This document shows, in pieces, positions 15,880 through 17,814 of a stretch of DNA of 64,000 nt; within the stretch, counting starts at the first letter, position 1; each line of letters opens with the position of its first letter. A program made the position numbers and the translations under genes. The notes below the pieces were generated by a model, which saw nothing but the letters and a program-made list of their open reading frames with translations, searched no databases and was not told the DNA's origin. The DNA lies in assembly GCA_044892505.1 (NCBI GenBank), contig CM097882.1:530968001-531032000 (forward strand), given 5' to 3'. The DNA comes from Schmidtea nova. Lineage: Eukaryota.

Positions 15880-17814
15880 TTGCGGTGGGTTGGGTCCATT
15901 AGGGGACCGGAAAAGATGCTGCTATGGGCCCCAGCATTCTTTTCAATTGGGGATAAAATGGCCAGGAGAACAGATGGATATAGGAGATCTGTTCCTTTAA
16001 TTGGAAAAAATAAAACGGGAGGGGCTTGTGTGAATAAGGGGTGTGTTCCAAAAGAAATAATGTATAGTACAGCGATGATTAGAGAGATAGGGCGAGAGGT
16101 TAAAAACTATGGATTTAAAGTCAATTATGGGTGTTTCAACTGGGAAATCATTAAGCTAAAGCGAGATAGTTATATAAAAAATCCGAATAATAGTTTTGAA
16201 GTAAAATATACAAGTGGGGATACGTTTTTGGGTGGGGAAGATTTTGATAATGTGCTTTTACAAAATATCGGTAATGAATTTAAACGTGATCAAGGCGTTG
16301 ATGTTAATAAAGACCCTATGGCTATACAGAGAGTTAGAGAAGCAGCTGAAAAGGCTAAAATTGACCTGCCATCAGCGATTCAAACGCACATTAATCTTCC
16401 ATATTTGACGATGGTTAATACAGGACCTAAACATTTGGGTTTAAGGTTCACACGGTCAAAGTTAGAGCAATTAGTGGAGCACCTAATTAAGAAAACAATT
16501 GAACCTTGTGAAAAAGGTATTAAAGATGCAGAGGTAAAGACATCGGACATTAAAGAAGTGTTGTTAGTTGGTGAGATGATAAGAATGCCTAATGTTCAAG
16601 AAACTGTACAGAAACTTTTCGGTAGAGTCCTTAGTAAGAGTGTGAATCGAGATGAAGCTGTTGCATTGGGAGCAGCAATACAGGGAGGAGTTCTTGCTGA
16701 GTATGTGATTGATGTATTATTGCTAGATGTTACACCGCTTTCGTTGGGTATTGAAACTCGGGGCGGCGCTTTCACTAAGTTAATTAATCGAAATGCGACT
16801 ATTCCCACCAAGGAATCAGCTCTCGGTCTAGTTTTGAGATTGGGAGGGGGAATGCAAATATTTGTAAAAACGTTAACAGGGAAAACTATTACCCTGGAAG
16901 TTGAATCAAGTGACACAATAGAAAAGGTAAAAACGAGAATACAAGACAAAGAGGGAATCCCACCTGATCAACAGAGATTGATATTTGCGGGTAAACAATT
17001 GGAGGGTGGAAGAATCTTGGCAGATTACAACATTCAAAAGGAATCTACTCTTCATCTTGTTCTTCGTTTAAGAGGAGGTAATGATGAGGAAGAGTTCAAA
17101 AGTTTATGGACCCGTCGGCGATCTAAAAAATGGAAAGTTACTCGAGCGCGTAACTTATTGTTGGCAGAAATGGTCGGGGAAATAAAGGACACACTTGTAT
17201 TATATGAAAAAGAATTTGAGGATACGTTGGACGAGTGGCTAAGACTTGTCGAGTTGTGTGACAAATTAAACAAGAAGGAGGAGTTAGAATTAGTGGAAAA
17301 AGATATCTGTGAGCTGGAAACAAAAAAAGAAGAGATAGATAAGATAATGCAAAAAAGAACAGAACAAAGTGTTGTGAGCGAGGGGTCAAAGACATCGGAA
17401 TATGAGGCGCCAAGAGAAAAGAAGAGTTTAAATCGGTTGCAGAAAATAAAGATTCCGATTTTCGATGGGAAAGTCGTCGAGTTTGAGACGTGGAAAGCGG
17501 CCTTCAATACGGTAATAGATACGGCAGATGGAACAGCCGAAGATAAAATGCAGCATCTTAGGCAGTACTTGCTAGGAGAGCCGCTGAGAATGATAGAGCC
17601 ACTGGGTTATACCGCCGATGGCTACAAGATGGCGAAAGAGAAATTAGAAAGGCGGTACGGAGGTGAAGAACGTAGTTATCTGACTATGTTAGAGACCGTA
17701 GAGAAATTCCGGCCGGTTCGCGAAGGAGAGATGAAAGACTTGGATACTTTCGTTGGATTGTTGGAGTCAATGGAGGTACGGTTTAAAGCAATCGGAAGGG
17801 AAGAGGACTTATAG
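15880..17814 (+). CDS. Chimeric ORF: glutathione reductase fragment + mitochondrial HSP70 fragment + ubiquitin + BEL Gag (first ATG at 15916)
   Basis: In one frame: [13 protein letters not shown] (~16018-16056); [15 protein letters not shown]...[15 protein letters not shown] (~16189-16812); a full ubiquitin unit (16852-17079); then [32 protein letters not shown] (DUF1759 Gag). Confidence 0.9.
15958..16185 (+). other. GSR: Captured glutathione reductase N-terminal fragment including the redox-active CxxxxC
   Basis: MARR..Y...V.LI...[17 protein letters not shown]....YGF.....[14 protein letters not shown] aligns with GR GGTCVNVGCVPKK..FNW..IK.KRDAYV. Confidence 0.8.
16189..16812 (+). other. HSPA9: Captured mitochondrial-type HSP70 fragment (NBD C-half to start of SBD), intronless and with non-conservative changes
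   Basis: [13 protein letters not shown] and GAAIQGGVL are mtHSP70/DnaK-type signatures. Conserved GGMTRMP and NPDEAVA appear as GEMIRMP and NRDEAVA. Confidence 0.88.
16852..17079 (+). other. Captured ubiquitin unit (76 aa) preceded by the degenerate tail of a previous unit (polyubiquitin origin)
   Basis: 69/76 identical to human ubiquitin by manual alignment, ending LRLRGG. The upstream [14 protein letters not shown] is a decayed [14 protein letters not shown]. Confidence 0.95.

Follow-up and report, generated by a model that had tools for sequence, protein, structure and literature searches.

The element and its surroundings

The window, the whole stretch of 64,000 nucleotides of Schmidtea nova DNA analysed here, carries on its forward strand a BEL/Pao LTR retrotransposon (14876-21106). 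It was identified as such by its structure and domains, and it is young but broken and lacks a reverse transcriptase (RT) (Table 1). A leader of host-derived fragments precedes its Gag, and the last of these, directly at the Gag junction, is a complete ubiquitin.

Table 1. Features of the BEL/Pao copy, in window coordinates
Feature	Position	Strand	Evidence or remark
Target-site duplication, 5 bp, GTATG	14871..14875; second copy 21107-21111	+	Sequence comparison
5' LTR, 802 bp, TG...CA, 3' part coding	14876..15677	+	0 mismatches in 802 against the 3' LTR
Frame opening at an LTR-internal ATG, with HECT fragment (~15422-15631)	15320..16000	+	PF00632, E 5e-10
Primer-binding site, 18 nt, complementary to the 3' end of host tRNA-Met(CAT)	15682..15699	+	
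Second tRNA-complementary box, TATGGGCCC (anticodon arm)	15923..15931	+	
Captured glutathione-reductase (GR) fragment, in frame, drifting	15991..16188	+	E 8e-15; pN/pS 0.77
Captured HSP70 fragment, drifting	16189..16812	+	92.5% nucleotide identity to host gene L191; pN/pS 1.12
Ubiquitin remnant, 13 residues (positions 64-76 of the preceding unit), decayed	16813..16851	+	
Complete 76-residue ubiquitin, tail LRLRGG	16852..17079	+	PF00240, E 2e-28; predicted cut 17079/17080
BEL/Pao Gag: helical N-terminal part, then DUF1759 capsid domain	17080..17814	+	
Remaining Gag, zinc knuckles, aspartic protease, acidic low-complexity filler	17815..20262	+	
Purine-rich tract before the 3' LTR	20281..20304	+	
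3' LTR	20305..21106	+	Identical to the 5' LTR

The ubiquitin tail LRLRGG is followed immediately and in frame by the Gag sequence NDEEEF, as an earlier sequence-only reading of this DNA had noted. The first Gag Met is residue 31 and there is thus no Met at the junction, again in agreement with that reading. The decayed upstream junction it described does read LRLGGG, but belongs to the 13-residue remnant and not to a second whole ubiquitin. The ubiquitin of the window copy is identical to host ubiquitin at 70 of 76 residues. A predicted structure model showed a ubiquitin fold, an unstructured tail at residues 72-77 and then the Gag helices, and its ubiquitin part matched known ubiquitin structures with a target TM-score of ~0.95.

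In this copy the primer site translates as GSRAWFP within the LTR-started frame, which falls out of register with the GR-HSP70-ubiquitin-Gag frame near 15950. An in-frame stop (17812-17814) lies inside the capsid domain, and the aspartic protease gave a weak Pfam match below the cut-off (E 0.0017). A Pfam scan returned no match for the filler that occupies the place of RT, RNase H and integrase. The window copy is a non-autonomous BEL/Pao member, and since it is recent but defective, function has to be read from its family (family A). Acidic low-complexity filler replaces pol throughout the RT-less copies of that family (L129-L190, and 18555-20262 in the window). In these copies the filler frame mostly has no stop until ~25 codons or fewer before the 3' LTR, a pattern that points to selection to have the entire RNA translated, non-autonomous copies included.

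The element is embedded in decayed Polinton/Maverick-like sequence (14014-14492, 23459-24790 and 27452-27916), parts of which are an A32-like ATPase fragment (E 0.001, below the cut-off) and a protein-primed polymerase B fragment; a further frame in this area, presumably capsid-like, had no Pfam match. Directly past the 3' LTR, on the minus strand, lies a decayed gypsy-like gag/protease/RT remnant (21107-23100, labelled by inspection) whose gag-like frame likewise gave no Pfam match. Elsewhere the window holds a piggyBac-type transposase frame of 383 aa (9291-10442, PF13843), a nuclear-receptor zinc-finger exon (1805-2296) and an intronless rhodopsin-family receptor frame (32573-33565). The minus strand of 41000-63600 is occupied by a Burro-like giant gypsy element with a frame broken by several stops, encoding retrotrans_gag, zinc knuckle, viral fusion glycoprotein, protease, RT, RNase H, integrase and ankyrins, which fits the description in PMC6431247. 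A TRAF/MATH gene comes after it, and the end of a RING-finger gene lies at 63104-63568.

Conservation of the junction and turnover of the leader

A DNA search of the host genome with the window element gave 1,764 first-look candidates, of which the best 40 were scored. The LRLRGG tail was present in 30 of the 30 nearest copies. As similarity across the junction had been the basis for choosing these, exact-flank patterns were also counted genome-wide, and the counts showed Gly-Gly at the Gag junction in 437 of 447 copies as against 464 of 519 at the upstream remnant. The Fisher p for this difference (1e-7) is overstated, as are all p-values from these copies, which are related and were taken from top-scoring matches, some of them for long frames.

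All 80 sampled family A copies carry LRLRGG before Gag, with synonymous variation in the Gly75 codon (GGT 29, GGA 26, GGC 25), while the position of Arg74 in the remnant reads Glu in 46, Gly in 33 and Lys in 1. Thus, LRGG is invariant while neighbouring codons drift, a pattern the sequence-only reading had proposed to look for, and its converse, LRGG mutated in most copies, did not occur; the tail is fixed and the remnant and leader decay. A further copy outside the 80 (L050) ends in LRLRGA. The residue after GG is Asn in 79 of the 80, and Gly in a close subfamily (L130, L060). Among 100 long loci, 97 have a full unit and 94 of these end in GG; the other three are otherwise broken or have no Gag junction. 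The three loci left out of the junction counts have no ubiquitin at the expected place (L148) or a frame break inside it (L109, L121).

Pairwise pN/pS among the 80 copies was 0.77 for the GR fragment and 1.12 for HSP70, and 0.15 for ubiquitin; for the Gag N-terminus, capsid, zinc knuckles and protease it was 0.08, 0.22, 0.30 and 0.25, respectively. Ubiquitin and Gag are under purifying selection, and the captured leader pieces drift neutrally (pN/pS about 1). We then compared the pieces with their host counterparts. Against the nearest of 14 host units, the window ubiquitin showed a dS of ~1.4 and a dN of 0.05, with pS near saturation (0.64). The HSP70 piece, in contrast, had a dS of only 0.13 and a dN/dS of 0.46 (range 0.29-0.76), and all five HSP90 pieces from families D and E gave a dN/dS of 0.8-1.4 against host gene L208. 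These contrasts indicate that ubiquitin is old and conserved, and that the other pieces are recent and free to change. Stops common to at least two copies were absent from the GR and HSP70 leader (0 observed, 6-8 expected from the number of shared variants), and private stops made up 7 of 220 variants. Judged by these sequence comparisons, the ubiquitin-Gag junction is a real, selected feature.

The leader itself was examined in 63 copies with an LTR pair, a sample biased towards high-scoring and partly long-frame copies. In 49 of the 63 the frame was open from an ATG in the LTR to ubiquitin, over 257-701 residues. The pieces of the GR-HSP70-ubiquitin leader described earlier are present, but the leader is longer and variable and starts in the LTR, not in GR. 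The frame was broken in 14 of the 63 and in the window copy, and two copies share one out-of-frame leader length; the start peptide of the window copy runs unbroken through to ubiquitin in L018 and L177. Start peptides vary between copies, and a calmodulin-like N-terminus is among them. Despite many different spacings, the primer site lies in the leader reading frame in all five Gag families (A-E) of the genome. A second tRNA box, in a form of 8-9 nt, is kept in otherwise unrelated leaders of all five families and reads CYGPQ or similar in protein, as it also does in three proteins from outside this genome (P0127, P0128, P0137).

The 3' part of the primer tRNA-Met had 1,034 exact matches in the genome. 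The listed tRNA-Met matches (L203-L206, G000:C1 ~510.09-510.13 Mb and elsewhere) form an unusually large tandem array with a 458-bp period. One stretch of this array holds a truncated unit, in which ARAGORN and Rfam found no tRNA, and the next units are tRNA-Met.

In-frame host domains were found in 24 of 25 leaders scanned, and included Vps35, cobW, ribonucleotide reductase, prenyltransferase, HSP90, FHA, CID, TCP-1, HSP70, HECT and a second ubiquitin. The alternative frames, scanned in 80 segments from the 140 longest of 272 with near-duplicates left out, gave two matches above the cut-off: one was a cobW piece from a copy with a broken frame, the other the end of Pol from an adjacent tandem copy. 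Most of the Vps35 piece shows 97-100% identity to host exons that are distributed across ~40 kb, with 90% in the last segment, and the piece joins them at GT-AG boundaries with the introns absent, so that at least this piece came from a spliced mRNA. Only about the first 100 bases of family A LTRs are common to most of them (25-30 of 37), and no promoter, start or polyadenylation site was located in the LTR. In the LTR of a family E copy (L108), the coding blocks resemble the HECT-derived repeats seen in family A, and the comparison suggests that LTR cassettes have been exchanged between families. Many copies stand in head-to-tail tandems that share an LTR (L027/L028, L153, L162, L176, L111, L104 and others).

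Ubiquitin before Gag in a BEL/Pao clade

A search of the genome by the Gag domain alone yielded 1,532 candidates, of which the best 150 were scored. Twenty-five of the best 30 loci had a ubiquitin-like unit ending in GG before Gag, and the remaining five had a stop or a masked stretch in between. The same arrangement was seen in 40 of 40 10-kb loci, 35 of them chosen from the Gag list by differing scores and frame lengths and five from the ubiquitin list. Gag of families B-E is 30-36% identical to that of family A, and the junction patterns include [RG]LRGG followed by M, and L[RS]L[CR]GG followed by ND, with Asn in families A, C and E. Gag after the junction reads NDEEEF in family A, SNENEF in B, NEEEVF in C, MKTQ or MDTQ in D and NDEEEE in E. 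Every family has some copies with a single frame running from leader through ubiquitin, Gag, protease, RT and RNase H to integrase, though RT is missing in most of the sampled copies (51 of 63). A domain scan of 11 polyproteins found the DUF1759 Gag and the Pol order protease, RT, RNase H (Peptidase_A17), integrase in seven, covering all five families, and DUF5641 was also present. In none of the 11 was there a protease other than the aspartic one or an element-encoded deubiquitinase.

Outside the genome, a protein search with ubiquitin plus Gag was dominated by polyubiquitins, and the Gag piece alone gave one match, which is ubiquitin-less. Among the best 120 of 1,773 matches to the RT region, all with the Pao domain PF05380, at least seven carry ubiquitin and an eighth starts with the ubiquitin tail; all eight are unnamed protein records. 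A Gag profile search added six ubiquitin-bearing proteins that are not on the tree described below, for an outside total of at least 14. In a quick maximum-likelihood RT tree of 63 rows, rooted at the midpoint only and with no Gypsy/Copia outgroup, 18 ubiquitin-bearing rows and one N-terminally truncated row formed a single branch (SH-aLRT 100), with ~50-55% identity within the clade, and none of the other 44 rows has ubiquitin. The tree suggests a single origin, after which the unit may have been renewed from polyubiquitin mRNA. At synonymous sites, the ubiquitin of family D resembles one particular host unit (pS 0.47) more closely than the remaining ones (at least 0.73), P0132 combines a host-like first half with a diverged second one, and extra ubiquitin units occur in L155, L135 and L157.

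We aligned 15 full units, which match host ubiquitin at 18-71 of 76 positions, and found that L73, G75 and G76 are the only invariant sites, where 0.02 invariant sites would be expected by chance if sites were equal. Four partial units also end in L-x-G-G, which is therefore present in 19 of 19 lineages. The structural residues Gly10, Gly35 and Gly47 are each kept in 13 of the 15 units. Positions of the Ile44 surface are kept less often (L8 in nine, I44 in eight, V70 in four), as are Arg72 (eight) and Arg74 (five); position 74 takes R, K, C, Q, L, F or Y, and position 72 is often Gly. The three most diverged units agree with ubiquitin at just 18-25 of 76 sites. The residue after GG is Ser in seven lineages, Met in six, and Asn and Gly in three each, and Pro in none of the 19. 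The GG lies ~19-28 residues before the first conserved Gag motif, which was not found in three of the 19 lineages, and the Gags of ubiquitin-less BEL/Pao elements start 16-58 residues before the same motif (17 of 18). This match in spacing indicates that ubiquitin ends where Gag normally begins.

Predicted release of Gag, its alternatives and its precedents

A conserved ubiquitin placed right before Gag, behind a freely changing patchwork of host pieces, makes it likely that host enzymes clip Gag free. The central proposal of the sequence-only reading, that ubiquitin serves as a host-protease cleavage signal for Gag, is thus supported by the comparative test, and we consider it highly probable that host deubiquitinases cut after the ubiquitin GG, which would free Gag with a fixed N-terminus whatever the leader. 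Translation would start at an ATG inside the LTR, and the ribosome would translate the long LTR, the primer site and the second tRNA box rather than scan past them. A host deubiquitinase would then cut after Gly-Gly, and the leader-ubiquitin product would presumably be discarded. With ubiquitin resetting the protein in this way, the 5' end would be free to acquire pieces of host mRNA through template switching, provided that the frame remains open. Transducing retroviruses likewise take up host mRNA pieces by template switching. Another residue stands in place of the ubiquitin Met in families B and D, as well as in 13 of 14 family E copies and seven of 50 family A copies, and hence translation cannot generally start there; an internal start had been named as an outcome that would speak against the proposal, and at this Met it is unlikely as a general route.

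According to PMC3692480, a ubiquitin with one protein on either side is cleaved cotranslationally, no matter which residue comes next, unless it is Pro. In the solved complex with USP11, Leu73 sits in the USP pocket and Arg72 and Arg74 also make contacts (PMC10637973). Arg72 and Arg74 vary here, although they contact USP11; ordinary USPs may act poorly on the most diverged units (18-25 of 76), where another enzyme may make the cut.

We weighed four other explanations of the fusion. Ubiquitin might stay attached, helping Gag to fold or serving it as a built-in signal for sorting. Purifying selection on the whole fold and not on the tail alone (pN/pS 0.15) would agree with this, as would the reported recovery of HIV-1 Gag release when the protein carries an uncleavable ubiquitin (PMC9703124). 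A retained tag, however, predicts that the Ile44 surface is kept and that GG can be lost, and the opposite was observed, with G75 and G76 in 15 of 15 units and the surface residues in four to nine. It would also load Gag with 257-701 residues of variable, partly misfolded host fragments, and an intact LRLRGG with a follower other than Pro is cut by default (PMC3692480), all of which makes retention very unlikely. The cut could instead be made by a host protease for another ubiquitin-like protein or by the element's own aspartic protease, at least in very diverged lineages. The element does encode a protease, and the varied position 74, the frequent Gly at 72 and the three units with only 18-25 matches fit such an enzyme. 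Retroviral-type aspartic proteases usually cut between hydrophobic residues, however, and a cut by the element's own enzyme gives no reason to keep a 76-residue fold; the window family, with 70 of 76 residues as in the host and a perfect tail, also speaks against a protease of either kind, which we regard as quite unlikely.

Ubiquitin could also be a recent passenger from an abundant mRNA, like the HSP70 piece, that looks intact only for being new, with Gag translated from a spliced RNA or from an internal start. Polyubiquitin pieces have indeed been captured repeatedly, as the extra units in three loci (L155, L135, L157) show, Met follows GG in six of 19 lineages, and most copies of family A have the Met of ubiquitin. 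Against this, the synonymous distance of ubiquitin is near saturation (pS 0.64) when the HSP70 piece has a dS of 0.13, the fusion marks a whole RT clade with ~50-55% identity, and stops have been purged from the leader. This reading is largely refuted by synonymous distance, selection and the invariance of L73, G75 and G76, and we find it extremely improbable. The sequence-only reading had raised a possibly tuned stability of Gag, and the main purpose of the cut might lie in an Asn N-degron that limits Gag levels. In the Arg/N-degron pathway Asn counts as a tertiary destabilising residue, and it follows GG in 79 of the 80 family A copies and in families C and E. Yet 16 of 19 lineages have Ser, Met or Gly at this position and even a close subfamily (L130, L060) has Gly; with Asn in just three of 19 lineages, the N-degron idea is unsupported and we hold it to be unlikely.

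Cleavage by host deubiquitinases, if true, would be a natural, clade-wide case in which such an enzyme matures the capsid protein of a retroelement. It would explain how host mRNA can continue to enter at the 5' end of elements whose gag-pol frames are intact, and the 19 lineages would make up a long natural mutational series of a ubiquitin cleavage signal in which L-x-G-G is fixed and the surface is free. More tentatively, and with rather more doubt than conviction, we suggest that an old clade handed the initial step in maturing Gag over to host deubiquitinases, and that LTR and leader thereby became a swappable cassette of host mRNA pieces selected to keep changing. The host-like 5' end and start region of each subfamily would then aid translation, or would make it hard for small RNAs to silence the element and spare essential host genes. 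There is also a practical side to these elements. First-look searches of the genome returned ~2,600 ubiquitin candidates, with the 14 host units at the top of the list, ~1,800 for HSP70 and ~2,100 for HSP90. These are largely element-borne fragments, which would inflate gene-family counts and confuse RNAi or expression work.

The closest parallel is found in cytopathic pestiviruses (BVDV Osloss, CP1, CP Rit), in which host-derived ubiquitin is inserted in the polyprotein (PMC8310069, PMC13517609). Cellular hydrolases cut at these inserts and generate the authentic N-terminus of the next protein, NS3 (PMC8310069). The inserts are often mosaic, CP Rit having an S27a fragment upstream of ubiquitin, and as described in those two sources they are sporadic, arose independently in single strains and lie before NS3 (PMC8310069, PMC13517609). 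The fusion described here, in contrast, is fixed in a deep clade, lies before Gag and has diverged to 18 of 76 matches with L-x-G-G kept, and it is preceded by a long exchangeable leader that begins in the LTR. Polyubiquitin, Ub-L40 and Ub-S27a are linear fusions cut after Gly76, as is predicted here. These cellular precursors begin with ubiquitin, are near-invariant and supply the pool, whereas the element units are internal and their surface is diverging. The ubiquitin reference technique places ubiquitin between two proteins as here, but in a laboratory construct (PMC3692480).

The elements agree with Belpaoviridae in their LTRs, 18-nt primer site, purine tract, continuous gag-pol frame, DUF1759, Peptidase_A17 and DUF5641 (PMC8742986 and PMC3118150). 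In the family profile, the stretch that follows the 5' LTR is non-coding, tRNA-Arg or tRNA-Gly serves as primer, and the viral protease does the processing (PMC8742986). Here, unlike in that profile, LTR and primer site are part of an open frame, priming is by tRNA-Met, LTRs are up to 1.8 kb long and Gag is preceded by ubiquitin. The non-coding leader and tRNA-Arg/Gly priming are descriptive traits of known members, not demarcation criteria. The BEL/Pao superfamilies are BEL, Pao, Tas, Sinbad, Suzu, Dan and Flow, with planarian members in Flow. The word 'ubiquitin' occurs 0 times in PMC8742986 and in PMC3118150. We found no report in the literature of a ubiquitin-Gag fusion in LTR retrotransposons, though it may be annotated in Repbase, GyDB or supplements. 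A whole BEL/Pao branch carries a conserved ubiquitin before Gag; for the predicted clade-wide use of host deubiquitinases, we found in print just the sporadic pestivirus inserts and laboratory constructs.

The capture of host pieces resembles LTR-mediated retroposition, in which pieces of spliced host mRNA, often from several genes and often in frame, are taken up by template switching (PMC5131818). There, capture replaces element genes and yields mostly defective chimeras (PMC5131818). In the elements described here, by contrast, capture is into the LTR and leader, the gag-pol frames are kept, and the pieces lie upstream of the predicted cleavage signal.
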